In this document: positions 3,668 through 47,084 of the stretch, piece by piece
Numbering within the stretch: the stretch's first letter is position 1
Layout of the letters: each line of letters opens with the position of its first letter
Source: Candidatus Komeilibacteria bacterium
Lineage (GTDB): Bacteria > Patescibacteriota > Patescibacteriia > UBA1558 > GWA2-36-10
Assembly: GCA_018656065.1 (NCBI GenBank)
Contig: JABHZY010000024.1
Location: 5,227-69,226, forward strand
Length of the DNA stretch: 64,000 nucleotides
Reading direction: 5' to 3'
The notes under the pieces: generated by a model
What the model saw: only the letters and a program-made list of their open reading frames with translations
Told to the model about the DNA's origin: nothing
The model's database searches: none
Position numbers and translations under genes: made by a program

Positions 3668-4637
3668 TTTACTTACTTGGAATGGTCAAAAGTATTTACC
3701 TTGGCTATTGAAGAGTTTATCTAAACAATCCTTTAAGGATTGGGAGCTTTTGGTTCTTGATAATGCCTCTACTGATAAATCAGTAGATATAATACGAGAA
3801 TATTATCCTAAGGCGAGAATTGTACATCAAAAACAAAATATTGGTTTTGCCAAAGGGCATAATCTACTTATTAATTGGTCTAATTCAGATTATATATTAG
3901 TTTTAAATCAGGATTTGATATTAGAGCCAAATTATATCAGAGAGCTGGTAGATTTTTTACAACAAAATACTAAAGTAGCTAGTTGTAGTGGTAAGTTAAT
4001 GTATTGGAATTTTAAGGCTGGTCTTAAAACTAAGACTATAGATTCTTATGGTTTTAAAATAGATAAAAAAAGAGAAGTGACTGATAGATATCAAGGACGG
4101 TCAGAAATAAAAATTGATAATGAAGAGGTCTTTGGCTTATCAGCTACGGCCACTTTATATAGACGCAAAGCACTGGAGATTATAGCTGGGCAAGCAAAAG
4201 CTAATCATTTTCAATATTTTGATGAAGATTTTTTTGCTTATAAAGAAGATATTGATTTAGCTTGGCGACTTAGATTATTTGCTTGGGAAAATTGGTTAGT
4301 TACTACTACTAAAGCTTATCATCACCGCAGTGTGTCTAAAGGTAAGGATCTTAAAGAGTCTCGTAAGACTAGGGGGTTTGCTAATAAACTTTCTTATCGC
4401 AATCATTTAATGTTACTTTATAAAAATTCTTTTTATAAAAACCTGTTTAAAGATTTTTTAGCTATTAAATGGTATGAGTTTAAAAAATTTGTTTATTTAT
4501 TATTATTTGAAAGAAGCACTCTAGTAGGTGTAAAAGAATATTTTGCTAATATTCCAAGTTTAGCTAAAAAAAGAAAATACATTATGAGACATAGAAAAGT
4601 GAATGCAGATGAAATATATAAATGGTTTGAAAAATAA
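3630..4637 (+). CDS. family 2 glycosyltransferase
   Basis: VTISLLTWNG...VLDNASTDKS and LNQD motifs. Confidence 0.85.
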   Translation: MDRMQKKPTVTISLLTWNGQKYLPWLLKSLSKQSFKDWELLVLDNASTDKSVDIIREYYPKARIVHQKQNIGFAKGHNLLINWSNSDYILVLNQDLILEPNYIRELVDFLQQNTKVASCSGKLMYWNFKAGLKTKTIDSYGFKIDKKREVTDRYQGRSEIKIDNEEVFGLSATATLYRRKALEIIAGQAKANHFQYFDEDFFAYKEDIDLAWRLRLFAWENWLVTTTKAYHHRSVSKGKDLKESRKTRGFANKLSYRNHLMLLYKNSFYKNLFKDFLAIKWYEFKKFVYLLLFERSTLVGVKEYFANIPSLAKKRKYIMRHRKVNADEIYKWFEK

Positions 4638-4638
4638 T

Positions 4639-5445
4639 ATGGAACTTTCAATTGTAATTTTAAATTATAATAATAAAAATTTAGTCAAAGAACTTTTAAA
4701 GAATTTGACAGAATTAAATATTTCATATCAGTATGAGATTATTGTAGTTGATAATGCTTCTTATGATGGCATAAAAGATATTATTAAAGAAAAATTTCCA
4801 AATATTAAATTTATTCAGAGTGACAAGAATGGCGGTTTTGCTTCTGGTAATAATCTTGGCATTAAAGAAGCTCAGGGTAAGTATATTATGATTATGAATC
4901 CTGATTTAGCAATTTTATCTGACGCTATAGATAAACTTTATCAATATATGGAAAATAATCTTGAGGTGGCTTTGGCTGGACCAAGATTAATTAATGCTGA
5001 TAAAAGTGTACAGCCATCTTGTACCACATTACCAGATTGGAAGCTACCAATGTACAGACGCACATCTTTAGCCAATACTAAAGCTGGGAAGAAATGGTTA
5101 GATAAATATTTAATGAAGGATTTAGATCATTATAAAAATAATTATGTCCCAGCTTTGTTTGGAGCTTGTTTAATTTTTCGTCGTGATGCGCTAGATAAGG
5201 TGGGTTTATTAGATGAGCGCTATTTTATGTATTTAGAAGATTTAGATTGGTCTCGTCGTTTTTGGCAGAATGGCTATAAAGTGGCTTATGTTGGCGAAGC
5301 TGAGATTATCCACTTACATCGTCGTCAATCAGCTGCCCAGGGGCTTTTGAAGACATTATTTTCCAAAACAGCTCGTAATCATATTATTAGTTTTGTTAAA
5401 TATCTCCTAAAATTTAAGGGTCAGAAATTACCTAAAATTTCTTAA
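4639..5445 (+). CDS. family 2 glycosyltransferase
   Basis: MELSIVILNYNN...VVDNASYDG and MNPD motifs. The ATG at 4639 sits just after the upstream stop and is preferred to the track start at 4603. Confidence 0.85.
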   Translation: MELSIVILNYNNKNLVKELLKNLTELNISYQYEIIVVDNASYDGIKDIIKEKFPNIKFIQSDKNGGFASGNNLGIKEAQGKYIMIMNPDLAILSDAIDKLYQYMENNLEVALAGPRLINADKSVQPSCTTLPDWKLPMYRRTSLANTKAGKKWLDKYLMKDLDHYKNNYVPALFGACLIFRRDALDKVGLLDERYFMYLEDLDWSRRFWQNGYKVAYVGEAEIIHLHRRQSAAQGLLKTLFSKTARNHIISFVKYLLKFKGQKLPKIS

Positions 5446-12552: not shown

Positions 12553-12581
12553 TTGACAAATATTAATATCTATGTTATAGT
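12553..12581 (+). promoter_or_regulatory. promoter of RNA A
   Basis: TTGACA, 17 nt, TATAGT. Confidence 0.65.
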
Positions 12582-12587
12582 GAGTAA

Positions 12588-12710
12588 TCACCCAAGGAAG
12601 GTGAAACTTATCTGGACCAGCAAAGTCCAAAAGATCCCCCGCTGCTGGCGTTCGTCCCCCGTTTTCTCCTCACATGGAGAATTCTAGAACGCCAGCAGCC
12701 CCCCTTTTTT
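12588..12710 (+). ncRNA. orphan GC-rich small RNA A (about 123 nt), family unknown
   Basis: Starts downstream of a consensus promoter. Hairpins CACC/GGTG and TGGAC/GTCCA. A 13-bp stem (12641-53 / 12687-99) encloses a CUCC/GGAG hairpin. Ends in T6. No ATG ORF with an RBS. Confidence 0.55.
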
Positions 12711-12759
12711 ATAAGGGTTTTTTGTTTATTTAAAAATTTAGCTAAAATGAAAAAAGGGA

Positions 12760-25172: not shown

Positions 25173-25201
25173 TTGACAGAAGAAAATTTTAGGAATATAA
25201 T
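25173..25201 (+). promoter_or_regulatory. promoter of RNA C
   Basis: TTGACA, 17 nt, TATAAT (exact consensus). Confidence 0.7.
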
Positions 25202-25207
25202 ACAGCA

Positions 25208-25358
25208 ATTCAAGAGTACATGTTCAAGGAACAGAACGAGGAAATTAGGTGGGGCCTTTCCTTAGTTGGCTATTTAGTGAGCATCGGCACAGGCCACTGC
25301 TCGTTTTATCCAACGAAACGTACTCGGCTGCGTACGTTGTTCTGTTCCTCTCTTTTTC
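25208..25358 (+). ncRNA. orphan GC-rich structured RNA C (about 150 nt, four-way junction), family unknown
   Basis: Closing stem 25228-38 / 25335-48 with one G.U valid only on the plus strand. Three internal hairpins: AGGAAA/UUUCCU, GUUGG/CCAAC enclosing GAGCA/UGCUC, and ACGUAC/GUACGU. A U run follows the closing stem, and a second hairpin lies at 25362-84. Confidence 0.55.
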
Positions 25359-25401
25359 TATAACCAAGTCCTATGGGCTTGGTTTTCACTGTAATCAAAA
25401 A

Positions 25402-30479: not shown

Positions 30480-32216
30480 TTATTCTAAGATTGCCTTGAT
30501 GCGTCTAATACCAGCTGATGAAGACTGTTCTTTTTTGATATGAAAATGACCTAAATGTTTAGTATTATCTACATGAGGACCGCCACAAATTTCTTTAGAA
30601 AAGCTTCCTACTTCATATATTTTTATCTTTTCACCATATTTATTATCAAAAAGACCAATAGCACCTTGATTTTTAGCTTCATCTACTGACATTTCTTTAA
30701 AATTTACTTCCAAACCAGCTTTAATTTGCTCATTAACCATATCTTCCACAGCTTGTTTTTGCTCAGGAGTTAATGCTTCAGGATGAACAAAATCAAACCT
30801 TAATCTTTTTTCATTGATATTACTACCACGTTGTTCGACGTGATCGCCTAATACATTTCGCAAAGCTTGATGTAGCAGATGAGTGGCAGTGTGATATTTG
30901 GTAGCCATTTCTCCGTCATCAGCTAATCCGCCTTTAAACATTCCAGCGCTAGCAGTTCTAGATAGTTCTTGGTGTTTTTTAAATTCAGCTTCGAATTCTT
31001 GCTTGTTTATTTTAATATTACTTTCTTGAGCTAATTCTTCAGTCATTTCTAGTGGAAATCCATAGGTAGAAAACAATACAAAAGCAGCTTTACCATCAAC
31101 AGTTTTTAGTTTAGTAAATTCTTTTAGTCCTTTTGCTAAAGTCTTAGTAAATTTCTCTTCTTCTTTGGTTAATTCAGAAATTATAAATTTTTTATTATCT
31201 ACTAACTCAGAATAACCTGATTTATATAAGTTAATTATTATTTCAGCTAATTCAACACAAAAATTGTTTTCTATATTTATTGATTTGCCAAATCTTATTG
31301 CTCTTCTGATTAATCTACGCAAAACATAACCTTGATCTTTATTGGATGGAGCTATACCACGTGGATCACCCATCATAAATACAGCCGATCTAATATGATC
31401 AGCTATGATTCTAAAAGACTTTTTATCATCTTCATATTTTTTACCAGAAAGTTTTTCTAGTTGTTTTATAATTGGCTGCCAGAGCTCAGTTAAATAATTA
31501 TCATCAAAGCCATTAAGCACCGCTAAGGTTCTTTCAAAGCCCATACCAGTATCAATATTTTTTTGTTTTAATGCTTCGTATTTACCATCAGCGGTTTTAT
31601 TGTATTGCATGATGACATTATTCCAAATTTCTACCCAACCATTATCATCTTCATGAAACACCTCAGGAGCATCTCCTTGACCTGTCCAATAGAATATCTC
31701 TGTATCAGGACCACAAGGACCAGTTTGTCCAGCTGGACCCCACCAATTTTCTTTTATCTTTTCTATTCTATCTTGAGCTACTCCGAGATCTAACCAAACC
31801 TTTTCTGATTGACTATCATAATTCGGCACATCTTCATTACCACCAAAAATAGATACAGCTAGATTTTTTTTGTCTAACTTTAATGTCCCAGTTAAAAATT
31901 CCCAAGAAAATTTAATAGTTTCTTCTTTAAAATAATCGCCTAATGACCAATTGCCAAGCATTTCAAAAAAAGTATGGTGGGTAGCATCGCCCACTTCGTC
32001 TATGTCTCCAGTTCGGACACATTTTTGGACATTGACTAATCTATTGCCTTCAGGATGTTTTTCTCCAACTAGATACGGCACCAAAGGATGCATACCAGCA
32101 GTAGTGAATAAAACTGTTGGATCATTTTCCGGAATTAAAGAAGCAGAGCTAATCAATGCATGATTTTGGCTCTGAAAATATTCAAAAAAACTCTTTTTTA
32201 ATTCTTGTGAAGTCAT
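30480..32216 (-). CDS. alaS: alanine--tRNA ligase, short form without the C-Ala domain
   Basis: Class II catalytic core. Editing-site HTATHLLHQAL and CGGPHV motifs. The ATG at 32216 (MTSQELKK) is preferred to the TTG at 32231. Confidence 0.93.
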   Translation of the reverse strand: MTSQELKKSFFEYFQSQNHALISSASLIPENDPTVLFTTAGMHPLVPYLVGEKHPEGNRLVNVQKCVRTGDIDEVGDATHHTFFEMLGNWSLGDYFKEETIKFSWEFLTGTLKLDKKNLAVSIFGGNEDVPNYDSQSEKVWLDLGVAQDRIEKIKENWWGPAGQTGPCGPDTEIFYWTGQGDAPEVFHEDDNGWVEIWNNVIMQYNKTADGKYEALKQKNIDTGMGFERTLAVLNGFDDNYLTELWQPIIKQLEKLSGKKYEDDKKSFRIIADHIRSAVFMMGDPRGIAPSNKDQGYVLRRLIRRAIRFGKSINIENNFCVELAEIIINLYKSGYSELVDNKKFIISELTKEEEKFTKTLAKGLKEFTKLKTVDGKAAFVLFSTYGFPLEMTEELAQESNIKINKQEFEAEFKKHQELSRTASAGMFKGGLADDGEMATKYHTATHLLHQALRNVLGDHVEQRGSNINEKRLRFDFVHPEALTPEQKQAVEDMVNEQIKAGLEVNFKEMSVDEAKNQGAIGLFDNKYGEKIKIYEVGSFSKEICGGPHVDNTKHLGHFHIKKEQSSSAGIRRIKAILE

Positions 32217-32309
32217 ATTATTATAATTCAAAAAATTTACTGTTTTTACAGTAAATCTGTATATATTTTAGTAAATTATAGCTTAAAAGTCAACTTATTT
32301 TAGTAAGTT

Positions 32310-32610
32310 AAAAACCCTGTCAGAGTACGAAGAAGCTGAAAGGGGGTTCAGCAGCTCGTTGATCACGAAGTGATCCTCTGACAGGGTGTGTCGTGGTGGA
32401 CCTTGATTAGGTTCCGCTCCGCTCTGATCGTGTGGCAGCGCTAGGCAATTTATTACCTAAATCAAGGTCCAACTATATTAATAGGGTCATCGGTGGAGGT
32501 CTGCTATAGCTGCTGGATCTAAAAGATCCATTGGCTTGGGTGCGTACACAGCCACAGCCACAGCCTCATGGAGGAGAGAAAGACACATCGATGACCCAAG
32601 AACATATAAC
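32310..32610 (-). ncRNA. orphan GC-rich structured RNA D1 (about 300 nt, three domains); strand tentative
   Basis: Three domains: an 11-bp stem 32315-25 / 32376-86 closing a three-way junction; a 15-bp stem 32398-412 / 32455-70; and a 12-bp stem 32484-95 / 32586-97. On the minus strand it is preceded by TTGACT-17-TATACT and ends in U5. One G.U in the third stem favours the plus strand instead. Confidence 0.45.
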
Positions 32611-32616
32611 CGAGCC

Positions 32617-32645
32617 AGTATATATTATATACTAAAGATAGTCAA
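32617..32645 (-). promoter_or_regulatory. candidate promoter of RNA D1
   Basis: TTGACT(32645-40), 17 nt, TATACT(32622-17) on the minus strand. Confidence 0.4.
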
Positions 32646-32661
32646 TATCTAGCAAATAAAC

Positions 32662-33120
32662 AAAAAAAAGTACCGGTCCCCCGCGTGAAATACGAGGGAC
32701 CGGCGAGAAAGGCTGCTACGAGCAAGCGTCGACGGGTTGAAGTATATTCTCTCCAGTTGGGACAGGATACCCCGGTCGGAGTTTGAGTCAACAGACAACA
32801 TGCTGGGGTCGCAAATCCCAGCGCTCCTTGAAACGGTCCTTGAAGGACCAGGTGCTTGCTTGCAATAGCAGCCACTTACAGTGGCCATCGCATTTTGATT
32901 GAATAGATCTGAGAGAGACGCCGGCGTTCCGTAGAACAGGTGTGATATGCTAGTCAAAGGCGCTAGCAGGCACACTGATGGTCTTGTCTCCCTATCCAGG
33001 GCAATCGTAAATTGATGGTCACTACCATCGTGTCGTATCTCCGTATTCTCGGACTTGTTTTTCCCTCCTAAGAAGTGTATTATGACACGCTGGCTTTAAA
33101 ATTGATGAACCCTTCTTGAC
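32662..33120 (-). ncRNA. orphan GC-rich structured RNA D2 (about 460 nt), family unknown
   Basis: Minus-strand promoter at 33127-56. Many local hairpins, including GAUGGU/ACCAUC, GCUAG/CUAGC, GCCAC/GUGGC, GGUCC/GGACC and GCUGGG/CCCAGC. An 11-bp terminator stem (32673-32703) has a U.G valid only on the minus strand and is followed by U8. The ORFs in this region run through the terminator. Confidence 0.55.
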
Positions 33121-33126
33121 TATTTA

Positions 33127-33156
33127 ATTTTAGACTAAACAAAGTAATATTGTCAA
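33127..33156 (-). promoter_or_regulatory. promoter of RNA D2
   Basis: TTGACA(33156-51), 18 nt, TAAAAT on the minus strand. Confidence 0.6.
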
Positions 33157-33207
33157 GAGTTTAGCTAATTTATCCACAAATATACTTAATTTATTGATTT
33201 TACAAGC

Positions 33208-33236
33208 TTTACAAAAATATATAAATATTATATTAT
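33208..33236 (+). promoter_or_regulatory. candidate promoter of the leader-peptide / 70-aa gene unit
   Basis: TTTACA, 17 nt, TATTAT. The ATG of the leader ORF lies 7 nt after the -10 (leaderless). Confidence 0.5.
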
Positions 33237-33243
33237 TTAGTTT

Positions 33244-33306
33244 ATGAAACAAATCAGCCAAACATATTATTTTCTTTGGCGTAACACTTATATTGATAAG
33301 TGGTGA
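33244..33306 (+). CDS. candidate 20-aa leader peptide MKQISQTYYFLWRNTYIDKW
   Basis: ATG at the predicted TSS. 6 of 20 residues are aromatic. The ORF covers segment 1 and segment 2 of the alternative structures. Confidence 0.4.
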   Translation: MKQISQTYYFLWRNTYIDKW

Positions 33307-33373
33307 TTTGTTATTTAGTTTTTAAATTTATATTAAATATCAGTTCGTCGCTTATCAATAAGCGATTTTTTTT
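33285..33373 (+). promoter_or_regulatory. candidate transcription attenuator (1:2, 2:3, 3:4 alternative hairpins)
   Basis: 1:2 hairpin CACTTAT/ATAAGTG (33285-302). 2:3 pairing ATTGATAAG (33292-300) with CTTATCAAT (33351-59), 9 perfect bp and extendable with wobbles. 3:4 terminator TCGCTTA-TCAA-TAAGCGA (33348-65) plus T8. Confidence 0.5.
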
Positions 33374-33413
33374 GTTTTTCGTCACTATCACTCTAGAGCC
33401 AAGGAGGGCCACA

Positions 33414-33626
33414 ATGCCCTGTACACTCAGCAAAGGTCAAGATGTTCGGAATATTGGAACTGGTGAAGCCCATATTATCACTGATATGCGCAAAACTCCT
33501 CCTCGTCAAATTGTTGGAGGTTGGGGGTCTGATGTCGTAGAATATACTCACATCCAGGTAGATGGGCAAACTAACAACGATGGGCATCCGGTTTGGCAAG
33601 CCTCTGGTGATTTCGAAGAAATCTAA
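33414..33626 (+). CDS. orphan GC-rich small protein (70 aa)
   Basis: Strong SD AAGGAGGG 5 nt before the ATG. Protein-like composition. Own terminator. The GTG at 33300 in the track is an unlikely start. Confidence 0.7.
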   Translation: MPCTLSKGQDVRNIGTGEAHIITDMRKTPPRQIVGGWGSDVVEYTHIQVDGQTNNDGHPVWQASGDFEEI

Positions 33627-33658
33627 GACTTGCTTTGGAGTAAGAGGAGCAAAAAGAA

Positions 33659-33690
33659 AGAGAGGTGCTAAGCGCCTCTCTTCTTCTATT
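33659..33690. terminator. terminator shared by the 70-aa gene and the convergent LRR gene
   Basis: AGAGAGGTGC-taa-GCGCCTCTCT hairpin with T-rich flanks on both strands. Confidence 0.6.
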
Positions 33691-33707
33691 TATAATTTTG
33701 TAATCCC

Positions 33708-34550
33708 CTATTTCTTTATAATATCTGTATTACTAAGACCAGCTTCTATGATATCTAGGTCATAAACAGAATAATTGTTACCTGAAATATTTAAAGTTTT
33801 TAAAGTTTTTAAATTAGCTAATTCATGAGGTAAGCCAGTAAATAAATTATTTGATAAATCTAATTCCTCCAGATTAGTAAGTTGACCTATTTCAGCTGGT
33901 AGATTAGTCATTTTATTATTACTAATATCTAAAATTCTTAATTTAGTGAGATTTCTAATTTCAGCTGGCAAAGTGTCACTTATATTATTATGAGATATAT
34001 TTAAAATTTCTAAATTAGACGCTTTTAAAACACGCTCCGGAAAAGAATTTAAGCTTGCATCTTCCATATTATGTTCTTTGATATTTTCATAATCTAAAAA
34101 AACAACTGCCCTAGTATTTTCTACCGTTTCTCTAAACTCTTCACTATCTGGATGATTATAAAATTTTGGAATGTAATGAAATCCTAGAGTAGCTATTATT
34201 ATAACTACAGCTCCTACAATAGCTAATATGCTTCGGCCATAGTCTACTTTAACTACATTTCTGCCAGATTGTTTAGCATTATTAACTTGTTTTGGCGTTT
34301 TCGGTTCGGTATATTTACCTTGTTTAATATAATTTTTATCTACTGCTTGACCCATCCATTGGATTATCCTGTTTTGCATAAAAATTAAAATTACAAATAT
34401 TGGCCACATGTTTGTAATTAAGCTAAAAGCTAATATAACGTAATAGTATAGTTTTAATTTATGACTTCTAGATTGCGGAGTGTCATTCTCTGAAATTATA
34501 AAATTGTTTTTATCCATATTTTTAGTATTAAAGTGACTATAGTATAACAA
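33708..34550 (-). CDS. membrane-anchored leucine-rich repeat (LRR) protein
   Basis: Two or three TM segments, then five or more LRRs (LxxLxLxxNxL), e.g. LEILNISHNNISDTLPAEIRNLTKLRILDISNNKMTNLPAEIGQLTNLEELDLSNN. Confidence 0.85.
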   Translation of the reverse strand: MLYYSHFNTKNMDKNNFIISENDTPQSRSHKLKLYYYVILAFSLITNMWPIFVILIFMQNRIIQWMGQAVDKNYIKQGKYTEPKTPKQVNNAKQSGRNVVKVDYGRSILAIVGAVVIIIATLGFHYIPKFYNHPDSEEFRETVENTRAVVFLDYENIKEHNMEDASLNSFPERVLKASNLEILNISHNNISDTLPAEIRNLTKLRILDISNNKMTNLPAEIGQLTNLEELDLSNNLFTGLPHELANLKTLKTLNISGNNYSVYDLDIIEAGLSNTDIIKK

Positions 34551-34599
34551 AAAAATAAATCTTATGAAACCTAAAAATTTATGCTATAATTATTATATT

Positions 34600-35103
34600 A
34601 TGTTAACTAAAGTTGCAAAAAATAAATTAGGTTTCACGCTAGTAGAATTATTAGTTGTAATTGCCATTATTGGTATTTTATCTACAGCAACTGTAGTTAA
34701 TTTACGAACAGCTAAAGCGAAAGCTCGAGACGCCAAAAGATTAGCTGAAGTTATGCAAATAACTAAAGCTGTGGAACTTTTTAATAGTGAAAAGGGCTAC
34801 TATCCTAATACAAATTGTCATAATTTACCCAGTGTAGTGCTTTGCACATCAAGATTAAGTAGTGGTAATTGGATACCTGAATTAGTAACAGAATTTGCAG
34901 CTAATCTACCAGATGATCCTCTAAATGCTAATGTTGATGGGGAGGAATATTTTTATTGGTTTACTAGAGACGCTGGTACTGGAAATCCTGCTGACTATTT
35001 TTATATATTATTTAATTTAGAAGTTACTGATAGAATAGACAATTGCAATAATCATCCATATGGCACAACATACTCATGTATGGGTGGCGGTGAATTACCA
35101 TAA
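34600..35103 (+). CDS. type IV pilin / pseudopilin-like protein
   Basis: Prepilin signal KNKLG|FTLVELLVVIAIIGILS (G-1, F+1, E+5). TGcTATAAT extended -10 at 34582-90, 9 nt upstream of the ATG at 34600. Confidence 0.85.
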   Translation: MLTKVAKNKLGFTLVELLVVIAIIGILSTATVVNLRTAKAKARDAKRLAEVMQITKAVELFNSEKGYYPNTNCHNLPSVVLCTSRLSSGNWIPELVTEFAANLPDDPLNANVDGEEYFYWFTRDAGTGNPADYFYILFNLEVTDRIDNCNNHPYGTTYSCMGGGELP

Positions 35104-35110
35104 ATAAAAA

Positions 35111-35132
35111 ACACCTTAAAATTTTTAAGGTG
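35111..35132. terminator. bidirectional terminator
   Basis: ACACCTTAAAA/TTTTAAGGTGT hairpin flanked by A6 and T6. Confidence 0.65.
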
Positions 35133-35145
35133 TTTTTTATTTTAC

Positions 35146-35541
35146 TTACAGACAATCTTTAGCTTTTAATAAGTCTATAGCAGATGGCGTAGCGCCATTT
35201 ACAATTTCGTTTGTTCTGGCTTCACCTAATTTTTCTATAAAACAAGCTGACATCTCAGGTGTTATCTCACTAGGTAGACTAACTACATCTACACCCATAT
35301 TATGCAGGGCTTCTTCCTGTTTATTTGGTATTAATGGATGATCAAAATTAGCCTCTTCAAAAGATACTCGCTCTTCTTCTGGCACTATTTTATAATCATC
35401 TATTTGAAGGATTAAGTAGCTATTTAATGTGCTGGCTATCAATTTATCTCTTAATTGAGCTGGATTAAAAATAATAATAACAATCAACCCTATGATAACT
35501 AATGAAATTATTAGACCTAAAAAATCTAATATTTTTTTCAT
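35146..35541 (-). CDS. N-terminally anchored hypothetical protein (131 aa)
   Basis: A single N-terminal TM helix. No recognised family. Confidence 0.5.
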   Translation of the reverse strand: MKKILDFLGLIISLVIIGLIVIIIFNPAQLRDKLIASTLNSYLILQIDDYKIVPEEERVSFEEANFDHPLIPNKQEEALHNMGVDVVSLPSEITPEMSACFIEKLGEARTNEIVNGATPSAIDLLKAKDCL

Positions 35542-35676
35542 AGCTTTATATTAATAATAATATTTTTATTATAATCTATTTTAAAAACAAAAGCTAAAAT
35601 AAAAACACAAACTTCAATGTGTTTAGGCTTAAAATAAGTGAACTAGAGCAAAAGCTTAGTGTTTAAGGACTTATAC

Positions 35677-35705
35677 TTGACAAATAGTCTTTTTTAGTGT
35701 AGAAT
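35677..35705 (+). promoter_or_regulatory. promoter of the DEAD-box helicase gene, followed by a structured 5' UTR of about 95 nt
   Basis: TTGACA, 17 nt, TAGAAT. The UTR contains CTCC/GGAG and ATGACC/GGTCAT hairpins. Confidence 0.6.
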
Positions 35706-35801
35706 ACTCTATTATTATGCTCCACTTTAAGGAGCGAGACTCGGAACCTCTTGTTTTATATAAATATGACCAGATGGAATATCGGGTCATAATTTTTATA
35801 T

Positions 35802-37070
35802 ATGACAAATACAAGAAAAAAACCATCGGGTTTTGCTGACTTAGGCATTTCTCCGACCATATTAAAGCAATTGCAAAAATTGAACTTTAATACCCCTACC
35901 CCTATCCAAGCTCAGGCTATACCAATAGCTATTACGGGCCAAGATTTAATGGGTATTGCTCAAACTGGTACTGGGAAAACCATTGCTTTTGGTATTCCTA
36001 TGATTCAAAGCCTCTATGCTAATAAAGGTACTGGTTTGGTATTATTACCTACTCGTGAATTAGCCGCTCAAGTAGACCAGTCTCTTAAGAATCTAGGCAG
36101 TGCCTTTGGTTTGCGCACTGCTATTTTAATTGGCGGCACTCCTCTTCCACCTCAAACTAGAGCTTTGAATGCTAGACCACATGTTATTATAGCTACTCCT
36201 GGTAGACTGATAGATCATCTACAAAGAAAAAGATCTATTCTTAATAATGTTAAAGTTTTTGTACTAGACGAAGCTGATCGAATGCTAGATATGGGATTTG
36301 AACCAGATATCAAAAGAATATTAAGCACTATCCCGGCTGGCAAGCGTCAAACTATGCTTTTTTCAGCTACTATGCCCCCTAAGATTACCAATTTAGCCAG
36401 AAACTACATGCGTTCACCTCTGCGTGTAGAGGTAGCTCCAGCTGGTACTACTGCCAAAGATATAACTCAAGAAGTATTTATCGTCCCTAGAGATAAAAAA
36501 CTTTCTTTGTTAGATCAATTATTGTCTGAATACAAAGAACGTGTACTTGTTTTTAGTCGTACCAAACATGGTGCTAAAAAAATTACTAGAGTAATAAATT
36601 CTTTAGGACATAAAGCCGCTGAGATTCATTCTAATAGATCTCTAACTCAGCGAACTAAAGCTTTAAAAGATTTTAAATCTGGATTTACTAGAGTTTTAGT
36701 AGCTACAGATATAGCTTCTCGTGGTATTGATGTAAAAGATATAGAATTGGTTATTAATTATGATTTACCTGACCAGGCTGATGATTATGTACATCGTATT
36801 GGGCGTACTGGTAGAGCTGGTAAAAAAGGTAAGGCTGTTTCATTTGTAGCCCCTGATCAAAAAAGAGATATTATAGCTATCGAAAGATTAGTGCGTATAA
36901 AATTGCCAATTAAACCATTACCTGCGATGAAAGCACGCATTATAGTGCCTAAAGAAGCTCCTAAAAGAAATTTTGCTAATCAAGGTGGTGGACGACCTCC
37001 ACGTCAAAAAAATAGTAACAGAACTCGTCGTTCCCAAGCTTTTAGACGTCGTCGTAAAAAAAGTATTTAA
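35802..37070 (+). CDS. DEAD-box ATP-dependent RNA helicase with basic C-terminal tail
   Basis: AQTGTGKT, DEAD, SAT and HRIGRTGR motifs. Confidence 0.93.
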   Translation: MTNTRKKPSGFADLGISPTILKQLQKLNFNTPTPIQAQAIPIAITGQDLMGIAQTGTGKTIAFGIPMIQSLYANKGTGLVLLPTRELAAQVDQSLKNLGSAFGLRTAILIGGTPLPPQTRALNARPHVIIATPGRLIDHLQRKRSILNNVKVFVLDEADRMLDMGFEPDIKRILSTIPAGKRQTMLFSATMPPKITNLARNYMRSPLRVEVAPAGTTAKDITQEVFIVPRDKKLSLLDQLLSEYKERVLVFSRTKHGAKKITRVINSLGHKAAEIHSNRSLTQRTKALKDFKSGFTRVLVATDIASRGIDVKDIELVINYDLPDQADDYVHRIGRTGRAGKKGKAVSFVAPDQKRDIIAIERLVRIKLPIKPLPAMKARIIVPKEAPKRNFANQGGGRPPRQKNSNRTRRSQAFRRRRKKSI

Positions 37071-37072
37071 TT

Positions 37073-44058: not shown

Positions 44059-44478
44059 ATGTACTGGAAAAATGATGCTGAAGCAATCGCATTTTTACAA
44101 TCGCGCGGACAACTAATCCCTATGGATCCTAAAGACATCAGAGAAGTTGCCACATTAATTCTTGATTTAGAATTAAAGAGGGCTAGAGAAGCTGAAGAGG
44201 CAGCTGAAAAAAGAACTGCTAGAGAAAAAAGAGGTCTCCGAAATTGGGATATAATCAAAAGAGGTCGCGAAGTTGTAGAAGCTGAAGAGGCAGCTGAAGA
44301 AGCTCGCATCAGACAGGCTGCAGCCGATGAATTTAAGCGACGAAAAGAAGCTGAGGAGGCGGCTAATCGTTGTTCATCATGCGGTAAAATTAAAAAAACC
44401 TGTAACACATGCAGTACGACGGTATGTTGTGGAACAAACATAAGTGGGTACTGCTGGCATTGCTGGCATGATGATTGA
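44059..44478 (+). CDS. orphan GC-rich protein (139 aa): charged helical region plus Cys-rich C-terminus
   Basis: SD AGAGGGTG before the ATG. EAEEAAE repeated three times. Tail CSSCGKIKKTCNTCSTTVCCGTNISGYCWHCWHDD. Own terminator. Confidence 0.65.
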   Translation: MYWKNDAEAIAFLQSRGQLIPMDPKDIREVATLILDLELKRAREAEEAAEKRTAREKRGLRNWDIIKRGREVVEAEEAAEEARIRQAAADEFKRRKEAEEAANRCSSCGKIKKTCNTCSTTVCCGTNISGYCWHCWHDD

Positions 44479-44479
44479 A

Positions 44480-44513
44480 GAGCGTTCGAAAATTCGGGCG
44501 CTCGTTTCTTTTT
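44480..44513 (+). terminator. intrinsic terminator of the 139-aa gene
   Basis: GAGCGTTCGAA/TTCGGGCGCTC stem with two U.G pairs valid only on the plus strand, followed by a T-rich run. Confidence 0.6.
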
Positions 44514-46678: not shown

Positions 46679-46707
46679 TTGACATAATCTTTAATATATT
46701 CTATTAT
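46679..46707 (+). promoter_or_regulatory. promoter of the 77-aa gene
   Basis: TTGACA, 17 nt, TATTAT. Confidence 0.65.
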
Positions 46708-46787
46708 ATTTTTTCACGTACATTTCGACCTGATAGCAAAATACTCTCCTGTCTCCATTAACCCCGATTTCTCTAACGGAGGTAAAG

Positions 46788-47021
46788 ATGAAAGCACCTA
46801 CCCTGGATTTTCCCAACGACGAAACAGCTGTGATCCTAATGCCCAATTGCCGTATAGCTACCGCTCTGCGCGAATTCCTCTTTGAACATGACTTCCATAT
46901 GAAGTCCCAAGATACTCAAGGAGGATTGATTATTCGGATACCAGCGGACGCGGACATTACTGAATCTAAGGAGCGTCTGCAGATTCTCTATGGCAAATTT
47001 TGCTATAAACAAGGTATTTAA
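46788..47021 (+). CDS. orphan GC-rich small protein (77 aa)
   Basis: SD GGAGGT 4 nt before the ATG. Protein-like composition. 5' UTR of about 75 nt. Own terminator. Confidence 0.7.
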   Translation: MKAPTLDFPNDETAVILMPNCRIATALREFLFEHDFHMKSQDTQGGLIIRIPADADITESKERLQILYGKFCYKQGI

Positions 47022-47045
47022 GGTGTCGCCTAAACGGTAATACCT

Positions 47046-47076
47046 AAAAAGGCCAATCCTTCGGGGGCGGCCTTTT
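47046..47076. terminator. terminator (GGCC...UUCG...GGCC hairpin)
   Basis: AAAAAGGCCAATCCTTCGGGGGCGGCCTTTT between convergent genes. Confidence 0.65.
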
Positions 47077-47084
47077 AGCTTTAT

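Follow-up and report, generated by a model that had tools for sequence, protein, structure and literature searches.

What is the GC-rich island that lies upstream of alaS, the alanyl-tRNA synthetase (AlaRS) gene, in a genome of Candidatus Komeilibacteria? The window analysed here is a 64-kilobase (kb) stretch of a population genome from this group of the Patescibacteria (Candidate Phyla Radiation), ultra-small, uncultured bacteria with tiny, gene-dense genomes, about whose regulatory RNAs almost nothing is known to our knowledge. The island, D2, is placed between an orphan gene of 70 amino acids (aa) (33414-33626, plus strand) and alaS (32231-30480, minus strand). We conclude, with a probability of roughly 0.7, that D2 encodes a real non-coding RNA, one of a small and rapidly evolving family, not described before, that is found in a subclade of the Patescibacteria. 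The key comparison is with two homologous loci, L095 and L096. D2 shares with them its position, promoter spacing and three-domain-plus-terminator layout, with base changes that appear compensatory, and D2, a second RNA cassette (D1down) and alaS are conserved partners, all in the same orientation.

The D2 unit is delimited as follows, in window coordinates:

33156 to 33127, minus strand: sigma-70-type promoter TTGACA-18-TAAAAT, matching the consensus at 11 of 12 positions, with a predicted transcription start near 33120

33120 to 32662, minus strand: predicted D2 transcript of about 459 nucleotides (nt), 50% GC, non-coding as judged from sequence and composition

32704 to 32662, minus strand: intrinsic terminator, a stem-loop (32704-32672) followed by AC and U8 at 32669-32662

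A first-pass annotation of the same DNA had proposed this promoter, and an 11-base-pair (bp) terminator with U8 closing a minus-strand unit of about 460 nt; both signals were found as described. Its argument for the strand is valid, since the U-G pairs of the terminator would become A-C mismatches on the plus strand. The terminator has a core of 11 bp (13 pairs counting G-U, nine of them G-C) and a 7-nt loop, and is the strongest of only three within the 64 kb that meet strict criteria. Promoter matches of at least 11/12 occur 13 times in the window, counting both strands (128 kb), and 11 of the 13 are intergenic, standing before a gene or a GC-rich island; because such matches are rare and mostly precede a unit, they are informative in this organism. 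The composition of the island is equally distinctive. GC content is about 31% in the window as a whole, 16-19% at third codon positions and 21-27% in intergenic spacers, so that a 50% GC transcript is set among neutral sites of 16-27%. The claim that the interior is the GC-richest stretch also holds in 500-nt bins, of which 32501-33000 ranks first (0.496 versus about 0.31). D2 is not an assembly artefact, since 10 further contigs, drawn from several independent ENA, NCBI, Logan and JGI assemblies, carry it with 100% identity. The protein that neighbours it is likewise found on contig JABIEH010000018.1 of GCA_018651305.1 and in several ENA, Logan and JGI assemblies.

D2 belongs to no known RNA family. 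Searched with Rfam 15 (4227 families), the whole window gave only a tRNA-Gln at the gathering score, and at E ≤ 10 there was only noise over the 1.2 kb from 32200 to 33400, as there was on D2 alone with lax filters. The first-pass annotation had left room for a known RNA; none was recognised. The type A and type B RNase P RNA covariance models (P1-P4, conserved regions CR-I to CR-V) gave no match to D2 at the gathering score or at E ≤ 10, those for OLE, ROOL, GOLLD, raiA and HEARO none above chance noise, and those for group I and group II intron cores and small self-cleaving ribozymes none; the T-box model RF00230 likewise has no match at D2. The earlier view that D2 lacks a tRNA-like 3' end and is not a transfer-messenger RNA (tmRNA) is borne out by ARAGORN, which finds only tRNA-Gln in the window, and by the lack of any Rfam tmRNA match, permuted families included. 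The sequence has no paralogue within the window and no family resemblance to its other GC-rich islands. Tandem Repeats Finder reports no tandem repeats inside it, and there are no direct-repeat families of the kind expected of a CRISPR or TIGR-type guide array or a tandem-repeat RNA antitoxin. The enrichment of 6-bp palindromes, GGWCC sites and GGA motifs in D2 is not significant or is due to hairpin arms.

The description of D2 as an orphan, and with it the prospect of a complete lack of homologues, has been superseded: L095 and L096 both have a relative of it, supported by synteny and by compensatory changes. First searches of nearer relatives gave no D2 within 6 kb of alaS in L001 (AlaRS 85% identical to that of the window) or L002 (79%), and a metagenome scan with six degenerate D2 seeds returned one identical copy only. 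The seed scan missed the homologues because they are too diverged for degenerate seeds; they were reached by walking contigs that encode more distant AlaRS homologues. In L095 (AlaRS 74% identical) and L096 (a 91.5% sister of L095), two tandem promoter-terminator cassettes lie between an HD-domain gene and alaS. The upstream cassette matches the first 150 nt of D2 (nhmmer E = 0.007 in L096, 0.04 in L095) and sits directly upstream of a D1down homologue, on the same strand as alaS. On the evidence of nhmmer and synteny, the homologues are:

9262 to 9623 of L095: D2 homologue, 362 nt

5252 to 5614 of L096: D2 homologue

The homologue promoter, TTGACA-18-TATTAT, has the same 18-nt spacer as that of D2, and the L095 RNA, folded alone, forms three domains plus terminator (z = -4.95). 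With D2 excluded, a covariance model (R2) of the 5' domain was built from L095 and L096 only. Its top non-self match in 434 kb was the window at 33120-33003 on the minus strand, full-length, at 28.2 bits and an E-value of 0.017 that is rough because of a shortened calibration. A further model (R3), in which D2 was added to R2, found no further member in 1.05 Mb of retrieved relatives' loci.

The predicted fold of D2 resolves into three domains plus the terminator, with a well-defined ensemble in which most helices have a probability of at least 0.9:

33094 to 33024, minus strand: Domain I, with closing helix GCCA.CGUGUC (33094-33084) / GACACG.UGGU (33034-33024), pair probabilities 0.93-1.0

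33069 to 33054, minus strand: purine tract AGGAGGGAAAAACAAG, resembling a Shine-Dalgarno (SD) sequence and the seat of a motif likened to CR-I

33023 to 32880, minus strand: Domain II, a long irregular hairpin, (GA)CCAUC..AUUU..GAUUG / CAAUC..AAAU..GAUGG

32975 to 32940, minus strand: apical hairpin GUGUG/CACAC around UGCUAG/CUAGCA, pair probabilities 0.98-0.99, a lineage-specific insertion

32873 to 32711, minus strand: Domain III, multibranch, closed by GGCUGCUAU.GCAAGC / GCUUGC..GUAGCAGCC

Domain I encloses an inner helix as well as the conserved purine tract. The three RNAs (D2, L095 and L096) were aligned with MAFFT, and the RNAalifold consensus contains 103 pairs, with 88% of cells paired. 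Both sides have changed in 18 of the 103 pairs, compared with 7.7 ± 2.0 in column shuffles (none of 500 reaches 18), a count drawn from two lineages and from a structure taken from the same alignment; controls in which partners were slid by 1-3 columns give 1-5 double-changed pairs. The clearest compensatory cases are the closing helix and the inner helix of Domain I. In the former, a U-A pair is replaced by G-C, a G-C by G-U and a G/A mismatch by U-A (the region of helices 2 and 3). In the latter, CUUC.UA/UA.GGAG of D2 corresponds to UCCC.GG/CU.GGGA of L095, with four double changes; the pyrimidine tract of this helix can alternatively pair locally with GGAGG.

The closing helices of Domains II and III were compared by hand. 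That of Domain II reads GACCAUCAAA../..UUUGAUGGUC in L095 and L096 (helix 4; eight invariant pairs, no covariation). That of Domain III reads CUGCUGCUGUGAGC / GCUUG(C/U)AGCAGCAG; here 11 of 16 bases are identical, and of the changes one is compensatory and three are one-sided. The blocks best conserved in the family are AAAKCCAKCGUG, the purine tract, GAUGGUAG(NN)GACCAUCAA..UACGA, GAUGGYCA and the CUGCU.../...AGCAG arms of Domain III. Lineage-specific insertions account for about 100 nt of D2. Among them is the longer helix CAGUGUG/CACACCUG singled out by the first-pass annotation, which is present in D2 as reported and absent from the homologues, where alignment columns 165-200 mark it as an insertion. 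The interior is indeed rich in short perfect hairpins, and all those listed earlier were found, among them GGUCCU/AGGACC, GCUGGG/CCCAGC, GCCACU/AGUGGC and GAUGGU/ACCAUC. The whole unit has a fold z of -5.3, a large share of which comes from the terminator, and Domain III alone, whose boundaries were picked after folding, has z = -4.4.

The purine tract is the most conserved single-stranded element of the RNA. Its consensus is AGGAGGG(R)AA(R)AAA(S)AAG, and the D2 sequence aligns with AGGAGGGGAAGAAAGAAG in L095 and L096, where AGGAGGG (33069-33063 in D2, 52 nt from the predicted 5' end) is conserved. The A-rich half is predicted to be unpaired (0.9-1.0) in all three RNAs. As an SD sequence the tract is of consensus strength, with the nearest AUG 33 nt downstream in D2. 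A conserved tiny open reading frame (ORF) behind it was considered and rejected, the AUG being 31-33 nt away and a 2-nt indel shifting the frames of the homologues; short ORFs downstream of the tract are not conserved in frame. Base-pairing of D2 with D1down, the alaS leader and the leader of the 70-aa gene gave nothing above shuffled controls, and a 9-nt match to the last of these is not significant. Pairing of the SD-like loop with a CCUCC loop of D1down, possible in each species, was also set aside, since the C-rich motif is not at an aligned position in the D1down family.

The same tract accounts for the resemblance to RNase P RNA noted in the first-pass annotation. The CR-I-like motif, GGAGGGAAAAACAAGUCCGAG, at 33068..33048, and the want of a 3' partner for it are as described, but kinship with RNase P is not upheld, the motif lying within the purine tract of the D2 family. 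In RNase P RNA the P4 pseudoknot pairs CR-I (..AAGUCC..; GAGGAAAGUCC) with CR-V (ACAGAA..GGCUUA). D2 has a loosely similar purine-rich motif about as far from its 5' end, but it contains no CGGACUU-type sequence. The nearest candidate, ACUUCAACCCGUCGACGCUUG, offers 4 bp only, and its GCUUGC instead pairs with GCAAGC in the closing helix of Domain III (probability 0.90). Nor is the 'GUCC' of the motif conserved, L095 and L096 reading AAGCGAC. With no model match, no P4 partner and no conserved GUCC, D2 as an RNase P RNA was rejected.

Immediately downstream of D2 lies the second cassette:

32645 to 32305, minus strand: D1down, with promoter TTGACT-17-TATACT (32645-32617), a structured RNA of 311 nt (32615-32305) and its own terminator

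D1down stands directly upstream of the alaS promoter (32293-32265) and has the strongest fold signal of the region (z = -8.5). It has no Rfam match. Homologues occur in L095, L096 and L097-L099 (nhmmer E = 1e-22 to 1e-7, with L095 and L096 best at 1e-22), 11 pairs show compensatory changes, and the core hairpin AUAGUUGGACCUUG...CAAGGUCCACCAC is invariant. D1down looks better supported as a new RNA family than D2 itself. In both L095 and L096 it follows the D2 homologue, as in the window. The gene order kept in the homologous loci is D2-type RNA, D1down-type RNA, alaS, a small ORF, S30AE/HPF and secA.

In L097-L099, which are independent assemblies of a single lineage, all three contigs are broken within the D1down homologue, about 190-205 nt upstream of alaS; the breaks may reflect strain-level heterogeneity in the RNA-cassette slot.

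A separate alaS promoter downstream of D1down is conserved in all relatives, and most of them have a structured promoter-terminator cassette upstream of alaS, with sequences mostly unrelated between lineages. That of L002 (5655-5935) folds with z = -8.1, and its alignment with D1down is at chance level. The cassettes of L093 (9471-10000) and L102 (1936-2427) are related to each other (E = 1e-8), and that of L103 (3594-4000) is of unrelated sequence. In L001 (4946-5352) and L092 (3259-3695) the same unrelated promoter-terminator element is found one gene further upstream, between greA and a gene of 188-198 aa. L100 has a gap of 158 nt upstream of alaS, without room for a comparable cassette, and the gap in L094 is AT-rich (GC 0.22). 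This pattern suggests that the slot upstream of alaS is a hotspot of RNA-cassette turnover.

L101 has in this slot (4382-4802) a 421-nt cassette, between an HD_4 gene and alaS, in which AGAAG, GCCAUCG, ACGAC..CCAU..ACGAUU and GCAGCAGCAG occur at D2-like distances from the 5' end. A loop of this cassette, AAGGAGGGGAUCC, agrees in 12 of 13 positions with the sequence complementary to the 16S rRNA 3' end. As a third D2 lineage the L101 element was rejected: it is alike by eye only, is detected by neither R2 nor R3, and its homology is unproven.

Overall identity between the L001 and L092 contigs is 98%, and it reaches 100% across 418 nt of intergenic sequence, yet identity to the AlaRS of the window is 85% for the protein of L001 and 89% for that of L092. 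The differences between them therefore seem to be concentrated in alaS, and may mark a recombination tract.

The wider setting is variable. Collinearity with L001, L002 and L092 ends at 32293, at the -35 box of alaS, and restarts at greA (37073), which places D2 within a 4.8-kb variable segment (32294-37072). This segment holds D1down, D2, the 70-aa gene, a leucine-rich repeat (LRR) protein, a type IV pilin-like protein, a 131-aa protein and a DEAD-box helicase, and is arranged differently in every relative. An alternative junction in L090 was discarded as an apparent low-coverage chimeric contig. Upstream of the D2 homologues in L095 and L096 stands an HD_4 gene in place of the 70-aa gene, LRR protein or pilin. 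The divergent small gene, absent beside the homologues, is therefore not a conserved partner of D2. It is transcribed in the opposite direction, as the first-pass annotation held; the shared AT-rich control region is larger than the 90 bp or so given there, with about 120 bp between the predicted transcription starts and 51 bp between the two divergent -35 boxes.

The orphan 70-aa gene forms a unit of its own (33236-33690, plus strand), with a strong SD, AAGGAGGG-6-ATG, clear codon periodicity and a GC content of 46%, unusually high by the standards of this genome. Within the 170-nt leader there is a terminator-like hairpin with T8 (33347-33366), with which an inverted repeat competes, and the unit ends in its own strong terminator (33658-33682). 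The protein has no homologue among 5.8e9 proteins. A ribonucleoprotein of D2 with this protein was considered and dropped, the protein being an orphan, absent beside D2 homologues, and its AlphaFold model unusable (predicted local distance difference test, pLDDT, 50).

Several observations weigh against D2 as an RNA gene and have to be set beside this evidence. Without the terminator, the 411-nt body of D2 has a fold z of only -3.05, and its plus strand, at z = -3.97, folds as well or better. Sixteen coding controls of the same length have a mean z of -0.1 (standard deviation 1.2) and reach -2.7. The modest value for the body, the equally good plus strand and the range of the controls mean that thermodynamics alone is only moderate, suggestive evidence. 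No GNRA or UNCG loops or other tertiary-motif hallmarks are predicted in D2. Only two independent lineages of the family are known, and significant sequence similarity is confined to the 5' 150 nt, the 3' two-thirds aligning poorly. The covariation statistics rest on effectively two sequences, since L095 and L096 are about 90% identical, and the structure was derived from the same sequences on which it is tested. Relatives with a more similar AlaRS are without D2, namely L092 (89%), L001, L002, L093, L094, L100, L102 and L103. The population contigs that carry D2 are 99.76-100% identical, so that single-nucleotide polymorphisms in this nearly clonal population tell nothing about selection on it. 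Finally, the GGAGG half of the purine tract is predicted to be mostly paired, and AGGAGG occurs 16 times in the window, mostly inside genes; these two points count against the mechanism that we propose for the tract.

What might such an RNA do? We suggest that D2 would act in trans as a stable structured RNA, and not as an mRNA or a leader; a trans-acting RNA is favoured over a leader because D2 has its own promoter and a very strong terminator and because alaS has a separate conserved promoter. The likely functional site is the purine tract, some 50 nt into the RNA. This tract could engage a pyrimidine-rich partner, most plausibly the anti-SD 3' end of 16S rRNA, and may serve as a 5' stabiliser or as a 30S-binding element. 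D2 would then work with D1down in a translation-related role. Such a role is proposed because the neighbours are alaS, a ribosome hibernation factor gene, secA, the HD_4 gene of the homologues and the partner RNA. Read from sequence, this mechanism is put forward tentatively, and we think it possible rather than probable. A more specific form has D2 and D1down as a two-RNA translation-control system particular to the subclade, acting through 30S/anti-SD engagement or AlaRS/tRNA sensing, with the slot a hotspot for the birth, swap and loss of RNA genes; this we regard as speculative and fairly unlikely.

A precedent for the proposed role of the tract is the STAB-SD, an SD sequence without a start codon near the 5' end of an RNA, which binds the 16S rRNA 3' end and protects the RNA, as in the cryIIIA leader of Bacillus thuringiensis. 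The AGGAGGG of D2 is similar in being about 50 nt from the predicted 5' end, in having no start in range and in being conserved in the homologues. It differs in lying inside a structured domain, where it is predicted to be partly paired; a STAB-SD would also leave the rest of the 460-nt RNA unexplained.

How does a trans-acting RNA gene compare with other explanations of the island? The one that survives best has D2 acting in cis, within a multi-terminator control or insulator region of alaS, in which either read-through tunes alaS or the terminators shield it. Leader RNAs, such as T-box leaders, are a classic means of controlling aminoacyl-tRNA synthetase genes, and D2 resembles them in being structured, terminator-ended and upstream of alaS in the same orientation. 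Structured cassettes that end in a terminator, even where unrelated in sequence, occupy this position in the window and in L002, L093, L095, L096, L101, L102 and L103. However, D2 has its own near-consensus promoter and the strongest terminator of the window, a complete D1down cassette and the separate alaS promoter intervene between it and alaS, and it matches neither the T-box nor any other leader family. Control of this kind is also hard to reconcile with the short gap of L100 and the AT-rich gap of L094. We consider a cis role unlikely.

Could D2 instead be junk, whether transcribed or silent, left over from DNA that was acquired horizontally and is decaying fast, with a GC content and foldability that serve no function? 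Its place in a segment that is not collinear with the closest relatives, its patchy distribution, the only moderate fold z without the terminator and its cassette-like anatomy (promoter, terminator, atypical GC) are all what would be expected of such a remnant. In its autonomy, strong promoter and terminator, GC content unlike that of the host and variable surroundings, D2 also recalls the small-RNA genes of genomic islands and phage 'moron' cassettes. It differs from these in that it is not in a recognisable prophage or mobile element and has no match to phage or plasmid DNA (blastn, distant mode), to viral contigs (six degenerate seeds and a conserved-motif pattern) or to phage and defence protein families. 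Unlike a moron, the insert is non-coding and is kept in order with a second RNA and alaS across species. The tandem of D2 and D1down has persisted between lineages whose AlaRS proteins are only 74% identical, compensatory changes appear to preserve the helices, the purine tract is conserved, and a GC content of 50% should not persist where silent sites are 16-19% GC. Junk is, in our judgement, quite unlikely.

D2 is not protein-coding, and an unrecognised or decayed protein gene is a very improbable explanation of it. Its best argument, missed by the first-pass annotation, is a frame open for 148 codons (33095-32652, minus strand), which spans 144 of the 153 codons of the unit and has p of about 0.01 against dinucleotide shuffles; there is also the AGGAGG near the 5' end. 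But no ATG, GTG or TTG occurs closer than 33 nt to that motif, and the first in-frame starts lack an SD. The codon-position composition of D2 shows no periodicity (chi-square p = 0.71); all the real genes tested, the 70-codon neighbour among them, have p < 1e-4. The two ORFs of 108 and 77 aa that were earlier judged to read through the terminator and not to be protein-like do so, as does the 148-codon frame, which crosses the U tract as well as the hairpin. Protein searches that bear on a decayed gene were uniformly negative: neither the 108-aa ORF nor the 148-codon frame matches Pfam, PHROGs or PADLOC, the 108-aa ORF has no match at E ≤ 10 in a word-indexed search of 5.8e9 proteins, and the 148-codon frame has none at E ≤ 0.001 in a full HMMER search of 1.84e9 representative proteins. 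In none of the assemblies do gene callers place a gene in the region. Among the homologues there are indels whose lengths are not multiples of three (GGUAGUGACC versus GGUAGACC, for example), which places the conservation at the RNA level.

To a highly divergent universal RNA (RNase P, tmRNA, 6S or signal recognition particle RNA), or a known large RNA or intron missed by the models, we give next to no probability: the CR-I-like GGAGGGAAAAACAAGUCCGAG does lie at a similar 5' distance and Patescibacteria RNAs can be atypical, but no Rfam model matches at E ≤ 10, no tmRNA or CR-V/P4 partner is found, GUCC is not conserved, and universal RNAs are expected in all relatives, whereas D2 is patchy.

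Taken as a non-coding RNA gene, D2 is most like the large OLE, ROOL, GOLLD and raiA RNAs. Like them it is a stand-alone gene for a multi-domain RNA of several hundred nt with its own promoter and terminator, GC-rich against an AT-rich genome, and was spotted by composition, fold and comparison, not by function. It also shares with them a position near translation genes, in this case the ribosomal S30AE/hibernation factor gene two genes downstream. In contrast, D2 matches none of their models, is found in two lineages only, turns over faster in sequence, has few invariant nucleotides outside the purine tract and has no predicted GNRA tetraloop/receptor motifs.

Other elements of the window were observed in passing. 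Two GC-rich non-coding islands, at 12553-12725 (plus strand) and 13004-12745 (minus strand), each stand behind an 11/12 promoter and have no Rfam match. The RNA at 12590-12725 (plus strand) folds with z = -5.8; that at 12970-12745 (minus strand) has z = -4.8 on the minus strand versus -0.6 on the plus strand, agreeing with the promoter orientation. These islands, at about 12 kb, coincide with a turnover in cumulative GC skew, which may be the replication terminus. At 25173-25395 (plus strand) a 12/12 promoter, TTGACA-17-TATAAT, precedes a GC-rich non-coding unit of 188 nt, which has no Rfam match, folds with z = -5.2 and contains both a long closing helix, GGAACAGAAC/GUUCUGUUCC, and a terminator hairpin. 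At 44059-44503 (plus strand) lies a 139-aa ORF of atypically high GC (0.42), whose product has a helical-looking body rich in E, A and R and a C-terminus rich in Cys and His, CSSCGKIKKTCNTCSTTVCCGTNISGYCWHCWHDD; behind the ORF stands one of the only three strong terminators in the window, and the ORF may encode the precursor of a small secreted or modified peptide. An autonomous cassette at 46679-47080 (plus strand) has an 11/12 promoter, a terminator-like hairpin, GGCCAATCC..GGCGGCC, and a 77-aa ORF whose GC content is 44% and whose codon periodicity is weak (p = 0.07).

What, then, would D2 mean for the biology of these organisms? Two strongly promoted, strongly terminated structured RNAs take up about 0.8 kb immediately upstream of an essential tRNA synthetase gene, and at least one other lineage has retained the pair of D2 and D1down although the sequences have diverged extensively. 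Should D2 prove not to be expressed, or to be functionless, it would serve as a caution that GC-rich, foldable islands with good signals are not automatically important. If it is expressed, it would add to the large RNAs a new family that Rfam does not contain, from a phylum that has been little explored. It would also offer a tractable case of the rapid turnover of structured-RNA genes, and a candidate connection of non-coding RNA with translation in host-dependent organisms. If, beyond this, D2 and D1down do form a two-RNA system of translation control, D2 would be the representative of a new functional class of RNA.

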